A stretch of 64,000 nt of DNA, from the IMG/VR virus record IMGVR_UViG_3300010352_001202, one strand, 5' to 3'. Of this stretch, positions 2,082-30,969 are shown in pieces. Origin of the DNA: a virus. Its lineage: Duplodnaviria; Caudoviricetes. The notes under the pieces were generated by a model. That model was not told where the DNA came from. It searched no databases and worked only from the letters and a program-made list of their open reading frames with translations. A program made the translations under genes and the position numbers. The stretch's first letter is position 1, and the number at the start of each line of letters is the position of its first letter.

Positions 2082-2269
2082 ACGAATCCTGGGAAGTAAT
2101 TATCGAGGAAGATGAGCACGGTGAGCTTATTCTTCCTTTTCCGCCTGAACTAATTAAGAAATATAATTGGTTAGAAGGCGATGATATTGAATTTGAAATC
2201 AAAGAAGGCTTTGTTGTTATTACGAATACAACTGCCAAAATGCGGGAACAGGAAAGCGGCTTAGGCTAA
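2078..2269 (+). CDS. AbrB/MazE/SpoVT-like DNA-binding protein
   Basis: GELILPFPPELIKKYNWLEGDDIEFEI swapped-hairpin signature. Confidence 0.7.
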   Translation: MNESWEVIIEEDEHGELILPFPPELIKKYNWLEGDDIEFEIKEGFVVITNTTAKMREQESGLG

Positions 2270-2276
2270 ATAATGG

Positions 2277-3659
2277 ATGGCCAATCTAATCCTGTGGAAT
2301 TGTCTTAACGACAAGCGTTTTCCTGTAAGAACATTATCCTGTTACCAATTAGCATCCTGGTTGCGTCAGCACGGCTATACAGTTAAGGTCATTGACTTCT
2401 GTCATTTAATGTCAACTGATGACCTTGTTGCTATCACAGAAAAACATATAGGTACTGATACACTTGCAATAGGAGTGAGCTCTACATTTTGGAGCGATGT
2501 CTTCAAGTGGAACACCGGCGAGCCCGAATGGATATTATCTGCCCGTGCAAGATTAGAGAATAAGAATCTATATTGGCTTGTCGGTGGCTCGCAAGCACAG
2601 TCCGAAAACTTTAAGAATGTGTGGGTTAGATTTTCTGGAAATGCAGAAGACGAACTTCTTAAATGGATGGACAATAATAGTTCTAAACTAAGATTTAGAA
2701 ATCTGTTTGATATAAAATCAGCAACTACGATATTTTCGGCAGACGATTATATTAGACCATCGGAAGTGCTACCTATAGAAATGGGTCGTGGTTGCCAGTT
2801 CAAATGTAGGTTTTGTAGTTATCCCTTAGTAGGTAAAAAGAAGGGAACATACATGAAGGACTTTAGTCTAATAAGAGAAGAGTTTATTAGAAACTATAAT
2901 GAATTCGGAACTACAAAATATTATGTGCTTGATGACACAGCCAATGAAAGTGAAGAAAAAGTAAATGCGTTGGCAGATATTGTCCAGTCTCTTCCCTTTG
3001 AATTATCGTGGACAGGATACAATAGATTAGATCTAATTTGGAGTCGACCCAACACAATACAAACTCTAAAGGATAGCGGGCTGAAGTCCTCATTCTTTGG
3101 TATTGAAAGTTTTCATCCCGAAGCAAGTATGGCCATTGGCAAGGGTTGGAACGGAAAGCATGGTAAAGAGTTCTTGTTAGAACTAAAAGATAAGTGGAAA
3201 ACAGATGTTACTTGGGGTCTATCTTTCATAGTGGGATTACCTGGCGAACTTGCCGAGCACATCGAAGAAACAGATGATTGGTGTGCAAAGAACGGTATGT
3301 ATCATTGGAATTTTTATCCACTGTCCATAAACAAGTTTTCTGGTAAGGTCTGGAAAAGCGAATTTGAATTAGAGCACGAAAAATACGGTTATACCTTCCC
3401 CGGGGAGCAAAATGTCAGTTGGGTAAGCGATAACTGGACATTCGGAAAAGCCGTATTGTACACGCAGGAATTGAATAAACGGCACTACGATAAAGCACAT
3501 TTAGTTTCGTGGCCTCTATTTGAATTATCTTCACTTGGCTACAGCATAAATGAGTTAATGGATAAGAAACTTGTGCAACACCCGTGGAAGCGTTATACAG
3601 CAGAGACAAGTAATTTTATCAACGAGTACACACAACATCAGCTGGCGCAGGTTGTGTAA
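2277..3659 (+). CDS. Radical SAM protein with N-terminal B12-binding-like domain
   Basis: GRGCQFKCRFC (CxxxCxxC), FGIES, FIVGLPGE; N-terminal LASWLRQHGYTVKVIDF. Confidence 0.85.
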   Translation: MANLILWNCLNDKRFPVRTLSCYQLASWLRQHGYTVKVIDFCHLMSTDDLVAITEKHIGTDTLAIGVSSTFWSDVFKWNTGEPEWILSARARLENKNLYWLVGGSQAQSENFKNVWVRFSGNAEDELLKWMDNNSSKLRFRNLFDIKSATTIFSADDYIRPSEVLPIEMGRGCQFKCRFCSYPLVGKKKGTYMKDFSLIREEFIRNYNEFGTTKYYVLDDTANESEEKVNALADIVQSLPFELSWTGYNRLDLIWSRPNTIQTLKDSGLKSSFFGIESFHPEASMAIGKGWNGKHGKEFLLELKDKWKTDVTWGLSFIVGLPGELAEHIEETDDWCAKNGMYHWNFYPLSINKFSGKVWKSEFELEHEKYGYTFPGEQNVSWVSDNWTFGKAVLYTQELNKRHYDKAHLVSWPLFELSSLGYSINELMDKKLVQHPWKRYTAETSNFINEYTQHQLAQVV

Positions 3660-3875
3660 CATAAAATAATAAGTTATAATGCGAACATGAGAAATAACAA
3701 GACAACAGCGACCGCTCCGCTTCGTACGAGCGAAACAGTGGATGTGCTTACCCAACAGATTTTGGGTCTAATCAAACGCGAAGGTTCTGGACAGTTCGAA
3801 TCTATTGATCAAACAAAGGTTGTTCCAGAAAAGAAAGTAAGAAAGTCGAAAAAGACTAAATAAGACATTGCCCAA

Positions 3876-4352
3876 GTGATATTGATTGAAGATTATTTAT
3901 TGTTATCGAAAGATGAGAGACAAAAGCATCTTCGATTAGATGATCCATGCATTGAGCGCGGCGGTCCGAGTAAGGGTGGTTTATCTTCTTACTGTAAAGG
4001 ATTAATGGCACATCAGCTTGACACCACGATACCGGTTGGGCATAAAATACATGTTTGCCATGCATGCAATAATGAAAAATGCAGTAATCCAAATCATTTG
4101 TATTGGGGAACTGCAAAAGAGAATAGATTAGACCAGATAGCAAATGGAACAGATAAGTCTATATGGCAACGCACAGTTGATAAATATGGCTTAGAGACAG
4201 CAAGAAGATTAAATTCACACAGAAGTATCGGTAATAATAATGCCGGTAAAAATAAGATTGCCCCTTTGGCGGAATTGGTAGACGCACTGGATTTAGGTTC
4301 CAGCACCGAAAGGCGTGGGAGTTCGAGTCTCCCAGGGGGCACCATAGTTTAG
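3876..4352 (+). mobile_element. HNH (His-Me) homing endonuclease reading through tRNA-Leu
   Basis: HVCHACNNEKCSNPNHLYWGTAKEN motif. Confidence 0.85.
4260..4344 (+). tRNA. tRNA-Leu(TAG)
   Basis: GCCCCTT/AGGGGGC; loop TTTAGGT; long variable arm; TTCGAGT; ACCA. Confidence 0.95.
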
Positions 4353-4843
4353 TTAGCCCACCTTGGGCACCAAATAAAATGAAAGATTTTTTCCTCTCTA
4401 TTCCAATGTACATTTTAGGTGCCATATCTGATTGGTATGGCAAGAATTATATTGGTGAACAATTTGAGGAAGACGATTTTGATATATTGAAGCCATTTGA
4501 CATTGATGAATGGCATGCACAGCATACGACAGAAGAGGATAAAAAGGTTTAGAGTGACCGGTACGGCCCGGCCGATACCAAGAACGTTTCGTAGTGTCGT
4601 TGACCCAAAACAATTTCAGGTATCGCCTGAGGTCGACATTACGAAGTGCCCAGATATGATACCTGTTCCCTGTACTAAAAAGGTATTAGTTTGGATTGGG
4701 GGAATAATTGGCCCTCGCGTTGTGAGTTATCTTCTGCGTACATCAGGAGACTCTAAGTTACTTACAGCATTGTCAATTTGGTGAAAAAGCGGTTTTAGTT
4801 ACTCTAATTTAATAATTTTTGACCTCGCAGTTACGAGTCTTAA

Positions 4844-4897
4844 AGAATGCGTTCAGCAATTAAAAATCAAACTTGTAATTTGAAAATAAGCATTCTG
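4844..4897 (+). ncRNA. CAGCAA-module RNA A (anticodon stem-loop cargo)
   Basis: AGAATGC/GCATTCT-G helix; GTTCAGCAA; TCAAA-CTTGTAA-TTTGA. Confidence 0.7.
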
Positions 4898-4909
4898 ATA
4901 TAAATATTT

Positions 4910-5038
4910 TGTTGTAGTTTTATCTGGCAGTAGCAATGGTCACTACTGGTAACGGTATATCGGGATAGGTGAAAGTCCTATAAGCGTAATCGATGCGCCC
5001 ACACAGCCCGGGGATATCGATAAACTGCAACACTTTTT
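4910..5038 (+). ncRNA. Unknown ~125-nt structured RNA
   Basis: TATAAATA at 4899-4906; terminal helix TGTTGTAGTTT/AAACTGCAACA; internal hairpins; 3' U-tract. Confidence 0.6.
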
Positions 5039-5049
5039 GAAAGCAAATT

Positions 5050-5325
5050 ATGTCCTGGCCATACGAACACGAACCTAAGGTTAGATGCATTGGTTTTCCC
5101 GAAACTTATCTACAGGCAATAATGAATGCAGTAGATAATCAGATGGTAGTTTGGGGTAAAAACGATTTATTCATGAGTATGGGAACTGCACAATTTGATT
5201 GGGCAGGTTGTACCTGGGAAATGACAGAGATGCAGGAATGTGTTACTGCAATTCAATTGGTAAAAGGTAAACCGATTGCAGAAGATTTGACAGCAGCAAT
5301 GCTAAAAGGTAAAATAGAGGCATAG
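5050..5325 (+). CDS. Hypothetical protein
   Basis: 91 aa ORF. Confidence 0.6.
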   Translation: MSWPYEHEPKVRCIGFPETYLQAIMNAVDNQMVVWGKNDLFMSMGTAQFDWAGCTWEMTEMQECVTAIQLVKGKPIAEDLTAAMLKGKIEA

Positions 5326-5335
5326 TAAGTATTTA

Positions 5336-5410
5336 GGGCGTTTAGCTCAGGGGTAGAGCGTTGCGTTTACACCGCAAATGTCCGGGGTTCGAAACCCTGA
5401 ACGCCCACCA
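5336..5410 (+). tRNA. tRNA-Val(TAC)
   Basis: GGGCGTT/AACGCCC; loop TTTACAC; ACCA. Confidence 0.95.
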
Positions 5411-5897
5411 GAAAACTTGGCGCGTTTCACAAGACCCGTTTGGGCTGTGTGACGGATAACAGTAAGGGAGTGCAAACCCTGAGCCAGTCCAGTTCGCATC
5501 AAGTCCGCAGATGTAAAATCCGGTCCGAGGATTGTTGTTCAACTCGTAATAAGAAACAACAAGGCGGGAGTCTTTGACATCACAGCGGTTTTACTATTCC
5601 GGAGTTAAAATTTAGTACGCGAGTTGAAGCGTTAGTGAGGTACGTCGAAAACACCAAGCGAAACACAAATTCCACACACTGGCATATTGTGTAAGATATG
5701 CCCCCGAGCTGCGTAGGGTTACGACGCAGTGGGTTCTTGTTGTGTTATCCCTAAAATACGGCGGCAGTATTCGGTTCTCTGCCTAACCCACCCGATCTGT
5801 TTGGAATACATTTACAGCCTAAATGTCAGTGAGTAGGAACACTTTCTATCCATGGATAGTAAAACATACCGGGGGCCGAACCGTTAGGGAGGGATAA
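5411..5897 (+). ncRNA. Large structured ncRNA candidate 1 (~490 nt)
   Basis: No credible + strand ORF; many local and long-range helices. Confidence 0.55.
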
Positions 5898-5936
5898 TTG
5901 GAAAATTCCCGAACAAGCTATAATTTAGGAACAGAA

Positions 5937-6188
5937 ATGAAATTTATCGGTAATGTGCTAGACAAGATAGCGAATGCTGTATGTGACTTCTTTGGAGTTG
6001 CAGACAAGGATTCGGGTGTTGTATTAGGGACATTTGTTATTTTTGTTGTTTTCATCTCTGTAGTTAGTGGTGTAGGATTGCTGTCGGCCTGGTTGTTGGG
6101 TATTCCGTGGTGGAGTACATGGGCAATAGCATTCTTGTATTACATGATTCTAGTCGTGAAAGCGAACAACGATATAAATAGTAGATAG
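5937..6188 (+). CDS. Small membrane protein
   Basis: Two hydrophobic segments; AGGA SD before ATG 5937. Confidence 0.65.
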   Translation: MKFIGNVLDKIANAVCDFFGVADKDSGVVLGTFVIFVVFISVVSGVGLLSAWLLGIPWWSTWAIAFLYYMILVVKANNDINSR

Positions 6189-6195
6189 AAGATTT

Positions 6196-6271
6196 CAGGG
6201 TTTAGTGTAGCCTGGTAACACGATTGCTTTGGGAGCAATTATCGAGAGTTCGAATCCCTCATCCCTGACCA
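6196..6271 (+). tRNA. tRNA-Pro(TGG)
   Basis: C1-G72; loop TTTGGGA; TTCGAAT; ACCA. Confidence 0.9.
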
Positions 6272-6373
6272 TAACATGATAAAATATAAATGCCAATGCG
6301 GCAAAGAAAACTGGGCAGATCAGAAGGTTTGCCCTATCTGTGGAAGAATTGTAAAGCCTCCACATAAACAGTC

Positions 6374-6862
6374 TTGAGGATGGTACACTAAACGTGCCTC
6401 AATACTCTGCCTGAGGATAATAGGCGGTGCACACCGGCCTTAGCGCGCGTGAACTGTTACATGTCATGAAATACATGTCAAGTCTCGCATTAGACTTGTA
6501 GGTTATGATAAAGATCCCATTTCGGCGCGCACGGTTTGGGTCATGCTTTGGGGGCATGTAAAAGTGACATAACTAAACTGGGTTTACCACCTATAGCACA
6601 TTTTCTAGGTAACGGGCAGCGAAGAAAGTGATATGCCGGTGGTATATGTAGTCCCTCAGTGATAAGGAGGCAAACTGCTGATATTCCTGTCTTACTATAT
6701 CACCTCCCGGATGTTGGGAAAATGCGCAAAGAACTATGGCATAGGAGAAAACCCATAGGGCGTGCGGCAAGGTTTGGCTAAGTATCTTGATATTGATTTA
6801 TCTTGTTGAAAACCGTTTGAGCCGTGCAGGTAACTTTATGACCGGTTAGCAAAACATCCACC
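6374..6862 (+). ncRNA. Large structured ncRNA candidate 2 (~490 nt)
   Basis: No ORF of 60 aa or more on either strand; nested helices. Confidence 0.55.
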
Positions 6863-8550: not shown

Positions 8551-8573
8551 GGGGGTGTAGCTCAATAAGAGCA
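8551..8573 (+). pseudogene. 5' remnant of an ancestral tRNA-Ala
   Basis: GGGGGTG-TA-GCTC-AATAA-GAGC-A: acceptor strand plus D arm only. Confidence 0.7.
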
Positions 8574-8596
8574 CAGAGTAATTGCATAAATATGTG

Positions 8597-9046
8597 ATGA
8601 ATAATGGCAAGTATAACACCGAGAATTATAAAAGAAAACAATCTGAAAAGTTAGATAGATTGTATGGTCCGGTTTTGCAACATAAGAAGATTTGTAAATG
8701 TTGTGGATCAGAATTTATCTTTGAAGGAAGACTAGATACAAAAGCCTACGAAAAGGCACAATTTTGTAAAAGAAGTTGTGCTAATAATAGGCAGGAATGG
8801 TGGGATGATAATGCAACACATTATCGAACTATTGCTTTTAGGCATTGGGACGAAAAATGTGCATTGTGCGGATTTGATAAGGTAGTAGCGGTACATCACA
8901 TTGATGAGAGTAAAGAAAATAATTCTTATCGAAACCTAATACCTTTATGCCCAAACCATCATGAAATGTTACATAGTAAGTGGAGACATGAAGTACAACC
9001 GCTTATAGATAGAGCGATAATTGAAAAATTTGGGCCTGTAGTATAA
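8597..9046 (+). mobile_element. HNH endonuclease
   Basis: CALCG...VHHIDE...NLIPLCPNHHEMLH; N-terminal Zn motif. Confidence 0.9.
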
Positions 9047-9105
9047 TGGGATTACGGTAGCTTTGCAAGCTATTTATAGGAGTTCGATTCTCCTCAGGTC
9101 CACCA
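9032..9105 (+). tRNA. tRNA-Ala(TGC)
   Basis: G3-U70; loop TTTGCAA; ACCA. Confidence 0.93.
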
Positions 9106-11170: not shown

Positions 11171-11248
11171 CGCGGCGTGGGGAAGCTCGGTAACCCGCTA
11201 GGCTCATAACCTAGAGATCGTTGGTTCAAATCCAACCGTTCGCAACCA
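11171..11248 (+). tRNA. tRNA-Met(CAT), initiator-like
   Basis: C1xA72; loop CTCATAA; TTCAAAT; one bulged base in the acceptor stem. Confidence 0.88.
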
Positions 11249-11499: not shown

Positions 11500-11578
11500 A
11501 GCAGGCGGGCGGCTGGTAGTCTCGTCAGGTCTCATAAGCCAGAAAAGAGCGTGGTTCGATTCCACGGCACTGCAACCA
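11500..11578 (+). tRNA. Atypical tRNA-Met(CAT)
   Basis: A1xA72; loop CTCATAA; T arm CGTGG-TTCGATT-CCACG; bulged A in the acceptor stem. Confidence 0.75.
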
Positions 11579-11630
11579 ATTAAAATGCCCTAAAGGGCGC
11601 GGCCCGAACATGCGTGTAACTGTTCTTATT

Positions 11631-24664: not shown

Positions 24665-25057
24665 ATGAAATCTAAGTGTTTAAATTGTCTCCAAGAATTT
24701 GAATATAATCCGCATCAAAATGCAGGTTTATATTGTTCAAATTCTTGCAGAGGAATACATAAATCCAGGCTTCATAAAGAAGCCTGGTATGCAGGTACAT
24801 TAACAAAGAAGATCGATCGTCCTACTATTAGAAAATATCTAACAGAGGATCGAGGATATAATTGTGAAATATGTAAATTATCAGAATGGCAAAATCAGCC
24901 CATAACACTTGAGGTTGATCACACCGATGGAAATTCTGCAGACGATAACCCGAGTAATGTAAGATTGATATGCCCCAATTGTCACAGTCAATCACCACAT
25001 CGCGGCGCTGCCAATAAGGGTAGAGGTCGTAAATCTTTAGGACTTTCGTTATACTAG
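24665..25057 (+). mobile_element. HNH endonuclease
   Basis: CEICK...LEVDHTDGN...NVRLICPNCH. Confidence 0.9.
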
Positions 25058-25071
25058 ATAAATAAACATAT

Positions 25072-25146
25072 GCGGGTGTGGTGCTAGTGGTAACACATAT
25101 CCTTGCCAAGGACAAGTTACGGGTTCGATTCCCGTCTCCCGCTCCA
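25072..25146 (+). tRNA. tRNA-Gly(GCC)
   Basis: Loop TTGCCAA; U73; CCA. Confidence 0.9.
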
Positions 25147-25759: not shown

Positions 25760-26011
25760 ATGGCCACACTTAAGATTAATGTTGATAGCACTTTTGATGT
25801 TGATGTAACGGTTCGTGAGAGCGATAAGTATTCTCAGCTTGCATTTGTTAAGTTTGAAAAGAATTTTCGTCCAGAACATATTCATGCATGCAATGAATTG
25901 TTTCTTACCCCGACACAACTCGAATTGTTAGGCCGATTCTTTATTAGGCAGGCAGATGCAATGCAAACAGCCCAGTCAATTCGTAAGAAGACTGAGATCT
26001 GTCAAGGCTAA
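25760..26011 (+). CDS. Hypothetical protein
   Basis: ORF starting after the tRNA. Confidence 0.6.
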   Translation: MATLKINVDSTFDVDVTVRESDKYSQLAFVKFEKNFRPEHIHACNELFLTPTQLELLGRFFIRQADAMQTAQSIRKKTEICQG

Positions 26012-26430
26012 TGATTTTTAGCTGCCTGCATTGCGGAAAGAAAAAGAAAGGATTTCCGTCTAGCCTCAATAAATATTGTACAAAGAATTGCCAGAGAGAA
26101 TTTGAGTATAATAAATATATTCAGGATTGGAAAAGTGGATTAGTCGACGGTTCTAAGGGTGTAAAGAATTTACAAACTTCGAATTATATTCAGCGTTATA
26201 TAAGAGAAAAATTTAAAGATACATGCGTTGAATGTGGTCAAAATAATATGCACAACGGAAAATTGCTATCGATGCAGTTAGAACATATTGATAGTGATAG
26301 TTCTAACAATTTAGAAAATAATCTATCATTACTTTGCCCGAATTGTCATACTCAGACCGAGTTTTATGGTTCTAAGAATAAAGGTAATGGAAGAGGATCG
26401 ATAAGAAAACAACGCGGGTATGGTATATAG
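26011..26430 (+). mobile_element. HNH endonuclease (paralog of 24665..25057)
   Basis: CVECG...QLEHID...NLSLLCPNCH. Confidence 0.9.
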
Positions 26431-26487
26431 GTTGTGCCCTAGCCTTCCAAGCTATAGAATCCGGTTCGAGTCCGGATACCCGCTCCA
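26414..26487 (+). tRNA. tRNA-Gly(TCC)
   Basis: GCGGGTA/TACCCGC; loop CTTCCAA; TCCA. Confidence 0.92.
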
Positions 26488-28465: not shown

Positions 28466-28540
28466 AGGACATTATATCAGCGGTAGATTGCGATCGTGAC
28501 AAGATCGAGGTGAGAGGTTCAACTCCTCTATGTCCTACCA
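28466..28540 (+). tRNA. tRNA-Val(GAC)
   Basis: AGGACAT/ATGTCCT; loop GTGACAA; ACCA. Confidence 0.85.
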
Positions 28541-28581
28541 GTATTTCATGGAAAGCATCTGGGTCTTTGTATAAATACATT

Positions 28582-29223
28582 ATGTGGACCTGTAAACATT
28601 GTAATCTATTATTTTATTTGTCTAAGACAACCGAAAAAGCAAATCACTCACGATGGTGTACATCAAACCCCAAGAATATATTTTATAGAGAGCAGGTTGC
28701 CAACCATGCAAAAATAATGTCCGTATCTAATATAGGAAGAATTCGGACAGAAGAAACAAAAGATCGAATAAGCAAATCCCGCAGAGGAAAATATGTAGGT
28801 GATAAAAATCCATTTTATGGAAAAACTCATACCGAGGATAGTAGAAATAAAATAAGCAATGCAGGACTGAGTAGTAAACATCGTAGGTTGGTAAGATCTA
28901 TTAGAAAATATGTAAGAAAAGACGGGACTGAAATATTATTAGATTCGTCGTGGGAAGAGATACTTGCGCAAAGATTAGATGAACTGGACATAAAATGGAT
29001 AAGACCCGTTGATCCTATAGATTGGGTAGATAAGACAAACAAGAAAAGGCATTATTTTCCGGATTTTTATTTAGAAGAATATAATATCTATCTCGATCCA
29101 AAAAATACAGCAGCTATGTCAGCACAACGGGAAAAGGTGGAGTGGTTATTGCTGAATAGGAAAGATGTTTATTTTTTGAAAACTCTCAAAGAATGTAAAG
29201 ATTACACACCGGCGTTCGTATAA
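28582..29223 (+). mobile_element. NUMOD3 + PD-(D/E)xK (TnsA-like) endonuclease
   Basis: NPFYGKTHTE, SSWE, YFPDFYL...YLDPK. Confidence 0.85.
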
Positions 29224-29283
29224 TGGAGAATACAGCTCTCTTCTAAAGAGCGAATAGGGGTTCGATTCCTCTACGCCGGACCA
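29209..29283 (+). tRNA. tRNA-Arg(TCT)
   Basis: CCGGCGT/ACGCCGG; loop CTTCTAA. Confidence 0.93.
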
Positions 29284-30623: not shown

Positions 30624-30932
30624 ATGAGCCACTGGAATTATAGAGTTTGTAAATCAACATACAAGGGTGACGGTTACGAAGAAGTCACCTACGAAATTCG
30701 CGAAGCATATTACAATGCTGACGGTAGCATCTGGGCTGTAACAGAAACAGCAAAAGGTGTATTTGGAGACAACATCCAAGAAATCAAGCAATGCCTTGAA
30801 TGGATGCAACTTGCGGTAAATAAAGAAGTAATCGATCTTGATACTCTTGTATTTGCCCCAATGGACAAAACAGACACAGGCATCGAAGAAGAATGGCTGG
30901 ATTCAGATAGTGATATTCTGCCGCCCTCGTAA
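30624..30932 (+). CDS. Hypothetical phage protein
   Basis: MSHWNYRV...IREAYY. Confidence 0.7.
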   Translation: MSHWNYRVCKSTYKGDGYEEVTYEIREAYYNADGSIWAVTETAKGVFGDNIQEIKQCLEWMQLAVNKEVIDLDTLVFAPMDKTDTGIEEEWLDSDSDILPPS

Positions 30933-30969
30933 CGCGGTCACGAGAGTTTGATTCTCTCATCCAGCACCA
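30896..30969 (+). tRNA. tRNA-Thr(CGT) with A19-U56 elbow
   Basis: GCTGGAT/ATCCAGC-ACCA; loop CTCGTAA; D loop AGTGATA; T loop TTTGATT. Confidence 0.8.

Follow-up and report, generated by a model that had tools for sequence, protein, structure and literature searches.

Between positions ~3687 and 4552 of a jumbo myovirus sequence (IMG/VR record IMGVR_UViG_3300010352_001202), of which the 64,000 nt analyzed are referred to here as the window, an ORF for an HNH nuclease and a complete tRNA-Leu(TAG) gene lie between two short pieces of another tRNA-Leu gene, and the whole is flanked by two small ORFs (Table 1). The window also encodes rIIA, a large terminase and a tail sheath with 53% identity to its counterpart in Pseudomonas phage PA5oct-like phages. 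ARAGORN identified 18 tRNA genes in it and Rfam two more, i.e., at 11172–11244 (53.3 bits, apparent CAT anticodon) and at 30896–30966 (45.4 bits). When positions 2200–6300 were compared by megablast with 50,697 records of public phage genomes, only the tRNA itself was matched, and no close relative was found among these records.

Table 1. Features of the tRNA-Leu locus, in positions of the window.
Feature	Position	Strand	Remarks
58-codon ORF (ORF58), left anchor of the site	3687–3863	+	Homologues directly 5′ of the tRNA-Leu site in L042, L073 and L074
TAAATAA-type motif, 5 nt 5′ of the old tRNA start	3856–3864	+	Equal position in L073 and L074
5′ stub of the old tRNA-Leu(TAG): acceptor 5′ strand, U8 and G9	3870–3878	+	Equals the first 9 nt of the intact tRNA of L042
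HNH (His-Me finger, I-PpoI-like) nuclease ORF, 158 codons	3876–4352	+	Conserved part 3876–4256
Complete tRNA-Leu(TAG), replacement copy of the cassette	4260–4344	+	ARAGORN; Rfam tRNA, 54 bits (gathering score 29)
12-nt spacer	4345–4356	+	Resembles (by eye) the bases after the cassette tRNA in L008 and L004
3′ stub of the old tRNA-Leu	4357–4372	+	T-stem 3′ half, acceptor 3′ strand, discriminator A, CCA
57-codon ORF (ORF57), right anchor of the site	4379–4552	+	Homologues 3′ of the site in L074 (74%) and L073 (45%)

The 5′ stub consists of GCCCAAG (3870–3876) followed by TG, and the 3′ stub of CCCAC (4357–4361), CTTGGGC (4362–4368) and ACCA (4369–4372), so that GCCCAAG and CTTGGGC are perfect 7-mer complements. 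The last three bases of the 5′ stub (GTG, 3876–3878) now double as the start codon of the nuclease, which is the first start codon of this ORF. Beyond position 4256 the ORF is a read-through of the inner tRNA and ends in frame at TAG (4350–4352). The inner tRNA has the long variable arm (an insert in the Rfam alignment) and the ACCA end of a tRNA-Leu, and the 5′ ends of both the old and the inner tRNA are preceded by ATT (3867–3869 and 4257–4259). These stub pieces, their complementarity, the GTG start, the inner tRNA, the read-through and the ATT triplets had been described in an earlier note on this DNA, and each of them holds. The TAAATAA-type motif in front of the 5′ stub is likely the promoter of the old tRNA. 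The + strand of the window has 23 copies of TAAATAA and the − strand 7, and motifs of this type are also found a few to ~25 nt upstream of several other tRNAs. TAAATAA (at 3857 and at 22 other + strand sites in the window) precedes the nuclease genes of relatives, too, and looks like a putative T4-late-type promoter. The 12-nt spacer was probably carried in with the cassette as flanking sequence of the donor.

The assignment of the two pieces to a tRNA-Leu was examined with a position matrix of tRNA-Leu ends that was constructed from 23 tRNA-Leu genes of other contigs, all of them found independently of the motif. Among the 127,970 16-mers of the window, the one at 4357 ranked first against the 3′-end matrix and outscored every real tRNA end, and the 9-mer at 3870 ranked 24th of 127,984. 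A pattern search in IMG/VR identified 45 contigs with intact tRNA-Leu genes that start with this 9-mer and end with the 11-mer made up of CTTGGGC and ACCA. Judged by eye from their D arm and long variable arm, all 33 distinct sequences from these contigs (33/33) are leucine tRNAs, and the CCCAC half of the T stem is also present in three of the intact genes. Given the matrix ranks, the intact genes with both ends and the TAAATAA-type motif 5 nt upstream, the pieces at 3870 and 4357 are the ends of a former tRNA-Leu gene, of which 25 nt remain in the two stubs and positions 10–60 are missing.

Syntenic relatives were located via ORF58, and only three were found (L042, L073, and L074), all of which are metagenomic contigs. 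With the radical-SAM gene as anchor, one distant locus was recovered that lacks synteny at the site, and the ORF at 5050–5325 had no match in IMG/VR. In L042, a 136-kb IMG/VR contig, the ORF58 homologue (71% over 41 amino acids, E 1e-20) is followed after 4 nt by one intact tRNA-Leu(TAG), and then by homologues of the downstream ORFs of the window and a tRNA-Val(TAC). The first 9 and the last 14 bases of this intact tRNA are identical to the window stubs, and the 3′ stub matches it at 15 of 16 bases; no nuclease homologue was found in 12.6 kb of L042. The earlier note had predicted that an HNH-free relative would carry a single tRNA-Leu with these ends at this locus, which is what L042 has. 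Its intact tRNA also supports the proposal made there that the element took the place of a tRNA's interior and carried in a copy of its own. It should be noted that MAFFT, when used to align the filled with the empty site, paired the L042 tRNA with the inner tRNA of the window because both are tRNA-Leu(TAG), and that the homology of its ends to the stubs rests on direct reading of the sequence. The radical-SAM gene of the window (2277–3659) is absent from the equivalent interval of L042, where ~540 nt separate the neighboring homologues, and is an insertion or deletion between the relatives. In addition, suppressor-type tRNAs with CTA and TTA anticodons are predicted in relatives, and L042 contains a tmRNA-like gene (L002, 362–508; L042, 4784–4859 and 7060–7516), which may point to reassignment or read-through of stop codons in this phage group.

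The site is filled in L073, where ORF58 is followed by a tRNA-Leu stub of 23 nt, a further small ORF, a nuclease with 65% identity to that of the window, a complete tRNA-Leu(TAG), 7 nt, a 16-nt stub and the ORF57 homologue. The 3′ stub of L073 begins at the same tRNA position as that of the window. The outer halves of the two loci differ at two base pairs, both of which are compensated such that pairing is 7/7 in L073 as well. As these compensated differences must predate the inactivation of the old tRNA genes, the simplest reading of the sequences is that two alleles were invaded independently. L074, the closest relative (81–86% DNA identity in the flanks), has no nuclease. The tRNA-Leu(TAG) in its resident position is 92% identical to the inner tRNA of the window, and thus resembles the inner rather than the outer tRNA. 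The order of events in the lineage of the window can consequently be read in two ways. One is that a filled ancestor of L074 lost the nuclease through a deletion between short direct repeats on either side of the nuclease and the 3′ stub, namely ATT with the four bases that open the tRNA, and the final eight bases of both tRNA ends. The other is that a cut tRNA was repaired from the tRNA of the cassette alone, and L074 would then have been converted by the tRNA. At this one locus there is accordingly a presence/absence polymorphism characteristic of homing elements, with the window and L073 filled and L042 and L074 empty.

The product of the ORF at 3876–4352 matched the HNH families of PHROG (E 8e-10), and in Pfam its matches to zf-His_Me_endon (23 bits, cut-off 27) and HNH_3 (18.7 bits, cut-off 24.8) were both below the cut-offs. 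No match to a GIY-YIG domain was found for it in Pfam or PHROGs, which excludes a nuclease of the SegB type. Residues H62, C64, C69, H74, and N83 are invariant in an alignment of 17 members and are present in the copy of the window, which retains all 19 invariant columns of this alignment. The active-site segment aligned with that of I-PpoI in a PDB profile (E 0.017), including the catalytic His, the Cys/His ligands and the metal-binding Asn. In an AlphaFold model (pLDDT 80.5), strands at 59–62 and 75–78 are followed by a helix at 80–89, and the best fold match found by Foldseek was also I-PpoI, although this match was weak and local (E 0.26 over 33 columns). The protein thus has the catalytic His, the metal-binding Asn, the Cys/His zinc ligands and the beta-beta-alpha-metal arrangement of a His-Me finger core.

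Homologues of this nuclease were identified at 25 IMG/VR loci, with identities of 43–71%, and 18 distinct loci were examined in detail after duplicate contigs had been left out. A tRNA-Leu (TAG, TAA, or CAA) directly follows the nuclease in 16 of the 18, 15 of them by ARAGORN and the remaining one, a degenerate copy in L013, through a profile search. In L017 a tRNA-Arg takes its place, and no tRNA was found after the nuclease in L018 and L022. The neighboring tRNAs and genes differ among the 25 loci, i.e., the element occurs in unrelated contexts, as homing elements do. The stop codon of the nuclease lies inside the tRNA in most loci, with a TAA occupying tRNA positions 13–15 in L002–L008 and L019; the ORF of the window enters its tRNA in the same register as the ORFs of these relatives. 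At nine loci, a 5′ tRNA-Leu stub ending at about position 27–33 lies upstream of the nuclease and is followed by a conserved leader with the TAAATAA motif and a Shine-Dalgarno sequence. A 3′ stub follows the complete tRNA in several loci, while several have one stub only. The outer stubs pair 7/7 in six loci (the window, L073, L003, L004, L005, and L019) with five different sequences, and the inner tRNA of the window is 80% identical to the cassette tRNA of L002. Recurrence in differing contexts together with the flanking stubs indicates that the nuclease and the tRNA are mobile as a pair and typically reside within a broken tRNA-Leu gene.

Several further features of these loci were noticed. 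The D stem reads GTGG in 8 of 10 old 5′ stubs vs. 3 of 12 cassette tRNAs (Fisher p 0.03). The old stubs nearly always have a GTGG/ACAC D stem and the cassette tRNAs mostly other, compensated D stems (L003–L023 and L073), a weak hint in the sequences that the D stem may be the determinant of nuclease recognition or of immunity. Mini-tRNA scars are found 3′ of the cassette in L004 and L005 (~3614–3654), where the acceptor 5′ strand is joined to the T arm, the acceptor 3′ strand and ACCA, and in L003 (~751–782), where it is joined to a remnant of the anticodon arm, followed by the acceptor 3′ strand and ACCA. The deletion in such scars, from about position 9 to the T arm, resembles the gap that is filled by the cassette in the window. 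In L020 the nuclease is preceded by an additional complete tRNA-Leu.

Compared with these relatives, the nuclease gene of the window is unusual in several respects. The D loop of its tRNA reads GAA where the relatives have TAA, and the stop codon is thereby lost, so that translation runs on through the whole tRNA. Read-through of the tRNA by the ORF had been correctly seen in the earlier note, which had missed that it is a defect of this copy and not a design, as the ORFs of relatives end on the TAA at tRNA positions 13–15. A basic C-terminal tail (GKPKSEEHK-like), present in every other member, is missing in the copy of the window alone. The label NUMOD3 was considered for this tail and not adopted; it is NUMOD3-like at most because Pfam gave a single sub-threshold NUMOD3 match, in L020 (E 0.005). 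The gene of the window starts with GTG and has neither a leader nor a Shine-Dalgarno sequence, because the stub of the old tRNA abuts the start codon, and the GTG shared by stub and ORF suggests a joint formed at a TG microhomology. The joints, at tRNA positions 9 and 61, also differ from the usual ones at ~30 and ~49–58, and more of the old tRNA was lost than in most relatives. As the joints are unlike the usual ones, the event in the window was not a clean homing by flank homology; the insertion is irregular, and probably either old or imprecisely repaired. Judging from the sequence, this copy of the nuclease looks to be decaying, while the tRNA that it carries is intact.

Taken together, we consider it probable (about 0.8) that the locus holds a free-standing cassette of the homing type, composed of an I-PpoI-like HNH gene and its own tRNA-Leu(TAG), inside the former tRNA-Leu(TAG) gene of the phage. 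Comparison of the loci reveals how the cassette is built, that its site exists in empty and filled form and that it recurs. The proposed mechanism, i.e., cutting of cassette-free tRNA-Leu genes, copying of the cassette by repair and immunity of the carried tRNA, is extrapolated from the architecture of the cassette and the published behavior of T4 SegB. During mixed infection, the nuclease would cut tRNA-Leu genes without the cassette, and repair of the break would copy the cassette in. Judged solely by which gene is broken, tRNA-Leu would be the target. The carried tRNA would make up for the destroyed gene, so that insertion would cost the phage nothing, and its own allele would be immune to the nuclease. 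The overlap of the ORF with the tRNA would hold the two together, and 5′ processing of the tRNA may limit expression of the nuclease, as was proposed for T4 SegB. In the window, the joint would have formed at the TG microhomology at the start codon, with loss of old-tRNA positions 10–60.

Other explanations of the locus were weighed against this one. Complements of 7 bp with CCA within 1 kb are expected, by our own estimate, tens of times per strand in 64 kb, and the pairing of the two pieces might by itself be a coincidence. The ranks of these pieces against the independent tRNA-Leu end matrices (1 of 127,970 and 24 of 127,984), the intact tRNA with the same ends at the equivalent place in L042 and the repeated architecture of L073 refute this, and we give virtually no weight to the idea that the pieces are not tRNA remnants. 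An ordinary rearrangement of the tRNA array, either by tandem duplication of a tRNA-Leu followed by deletions or by illegitimate recombination, with the nuclease as a bystander that does not target tRNA-Leu, deserves more consideration. Phage tRNA arrays are mosaic, and the extra tRNA-Leu of L020, the internally deleted mini-tRNAs of L004 and L005 and the irregular joints of the window would all fit such a history. However, a tandem copy that erodes could not leave its 5′ end upstream and its 3′ end downstream of a second, complete tRNA. Moreover, members of the nuclease family are coupled to tRNA-Leu at 16 of the 18 distinct loci, which differ in context, the nesting recurs with five different outer sequences, and the 5′ stubs end at a similar position (27–33) in nine loci, which together make a rearrangement of this kind unlikely. 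A group I or II intron in the tRNA gene was also considered and rejected, as a ribozyme is lacking and the stubs do not add up to a whole tRNA (25 nt, positions 10–60 absent); no intron family was found in Rfam at E up to 1 within positions 3000–6500, nor at gathering score across the whole window. With 25 nt of the old tRNA left, a split tRNA is ruled out as well.

The cassette reading leaves the matter of whether the outer helix still has a role. The earlier note had suggested that the 7-bp helix plus CCA could wrap the mRNA, mask the start codon or be processed like a tRNA, a functional speculation for which we found no support. Retention for function, whether as closure of a giant tRNA with an RNase P cut at 3870 and maturation at 4372 or as masking of the GTG, would be in line with the perfect pairing, with the position of the start codon at the end of the helix and with outer halves that are perfectly complementary in five other loci too. 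The helix is predicted with P ~1 only if the RNA is trimmed to ~3866–4376, however, and with longer flanks P falls to 0.12 or less (0.00–0.12), with a local hairpin at 4356–4368 competing for the 3′ strand. Because the prediction depends on where the RNA is cut, it is not evidence. Also against a function, the 5′ half lies, in most relatives, upstream of the nuclease's own promoter-like motif and Shine-Dalgarno sequence, the partnerless D-arm part of those stubs that keep it is as well preserved as the acceptor strand, and several loci have a single stub. Retention for function is thus very unlikely in our view, and the sequences are best explained if the perfect outer pairing reflects the youth of the remnants (i.e., a recent insertion) and not selection or function.

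Among published systems, the closest to the proposed cassette is SegB of phage T4. This free-standing homing endonuclease, encoded within the T4 tRNA cluster, cuts tRNA genes and causes its own gene and neighboring tRNA genes to be inherited preferentially (PMC2330249). The SegB ORF abuts the next tRNA, and processing of tRNA-Arg removes the SegB stop codon, which was proposed to limit expression (PMC2330249); SegB can also amplify tRNA loci (PMC13096335). The two share a selfish nuclease located among phage tRNA genes; the targets of SegB lie inside tRNA genes, as those of the enzyme of the window would. SegB is, however, a GIY-YIG enzyme that recognizes a T-loop motif of many tRNAs, whereas the enzyme of the window is of the His-Me/HNH type and is tied to one isotype. 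Unlike SegB, the nuclease of the window is nested between the ends of the gene that it appears to have broken, and its cassette carries an isoacceptor replacement whose first 15 bases form the end of the ORF. The differences from SegB are thus the type of nuclease, its constant association with a single isotype and its location, along with a whole substitute gene, within the gene that was destroyed. HNH endonucleases (F-TflI, II, and IV) are also encoded in the tRNA region of phage T5 (Akulenko 2004, cited in PMC2330249). There, as in the window, ORFs for HNH-type site-specific nucleases are interleaved with tRNA genes, and control of their expression by transcript processing has been proposed (PMC2330249). 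Neither nesting in a target tRNA nor a carried replacement tRNA figures in those passages of PMC2330249 that deal with T5.

The likeness to I-PpoI and the His-Cys box enzymes consists of the aligned active-site and zinc-ligand motif and the best fold match, and the similarity is limited to ~30 residues (E 0.017; Foldseek E 0.26). The I-PpoI gene resides in a group I intron of eukaryotic rDNA, which is restored by splicing, while the locus of the window has no intron. Mobile group I introns sit in the anticodon loop of bacterial tRNA-Leu(UAA). They resemble the cassette in that a mobile element interrupts a tRNA-Leu, and the 5′ stub of most relatives seems to run approximately to the anticodon loop. 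In contrast, the window has no ribozyme, and its broken gene was replaced by a second complete gene and not repaired by splicing. The literature searched, from whose coverage most subscription journals were absent, yielded SegB and general comments about HNH genes in the vicinity of tRNA arrays, and no description of a nested nuclease-plus-tRNA cassette was found in it.

In addition to the tRNA-Leu locus, a second nested case is found at 8551–9105 of the window. An old tRNA-Ala(TGC) is represented there by its 5′ half (8551–~8588), which extends from the acceptor strand to the end of the anticodon and precedes an HNH gene (start at 8597 or 8582, end at 9046) that is unrelated to the nuclease of the Leu cassette; no homology was found between the two nuclease genes. 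The stop codon of this HNH gene lies at positions 13–15 of a complete tRNA-Ala(TGC) (9032–9105), and no 3′ stub was seen downstream. Nuclease-type ORFs immediately 5′ of tRNAs are found in three further regions. At 24665–25146 an HNH ORF ends 14 nt before a tRNA-Gly(GCC), and at 26011–26487 an HNH ORF overlaps a tRNA-Gly(TCC) by 17 nt; no obvious stubs of old tRNAs were found beside these two Gly cassettes. At 28510–29283, the ORF has 237 codons, contains a NUMOD3 motif (E 6e-12) and overlaps a tRNA-Arg(TCT) by 15 nt. Farther from the nuclease genes in kind, a short conserved non-coding element at 4844–4902 has a sub-threshold Rfam match (4845–4897, 28.7 bits, gathering score 41.5) and recurs at 79–82% identity at two places (3916–3977 and 11565–11620) within the tRNA array of L001, a distant relative.

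In this jumbo phage and its relatives, destruction of a resident gene and its replacement by homing could be a general route for genes of structured RNAs, in which a replacement RNA fused to a nuclease overwrites the resident RNA, as is seen or suspected for tRNA-Leu, tRNA-Ala, two tRNA-Gly and tRNA-Arg; we put the odds for such generality at about even. Carried alleles may also spread without the nuclease, if a cut tRNA gene can be repaired from the cassette tRNA alone, which would give the state of L074.

Free-standing homing nucleases in phage tRNA clusters are known (e.g., SegB), and how an element without an intron could break an essential or useful RNA gene at no cost was not described in the literature that we found. 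At the locus studied here the answer can be read from the DNA: a whole substitute gene arrives with the element, whose ORF terminates within it. The cassette illustrates how selfish elements may overwrite tRNA genes without harming the phage. Four natural states, i.e., the intact old allele (L042), two independently filled sites (the window and L073) and the nuclease-free new allele (L074), exist in related phages and make the target, the determinant of immunity and the conversion tract directly testable. Such cassettes also explain the orphan tRNA fragments and the ORFs "overlapping" tRNAs in phage annotations. These results suggest that selfish elements, and not only codon usage or evasion of defense, have a part in shaping the tRNA repertoires of large phages. 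If destruction and replacement are indeed general and carried tRNAs spread on their own as well, homing nucleases would be a main engine of tRNA allele turnover in phage arrays.
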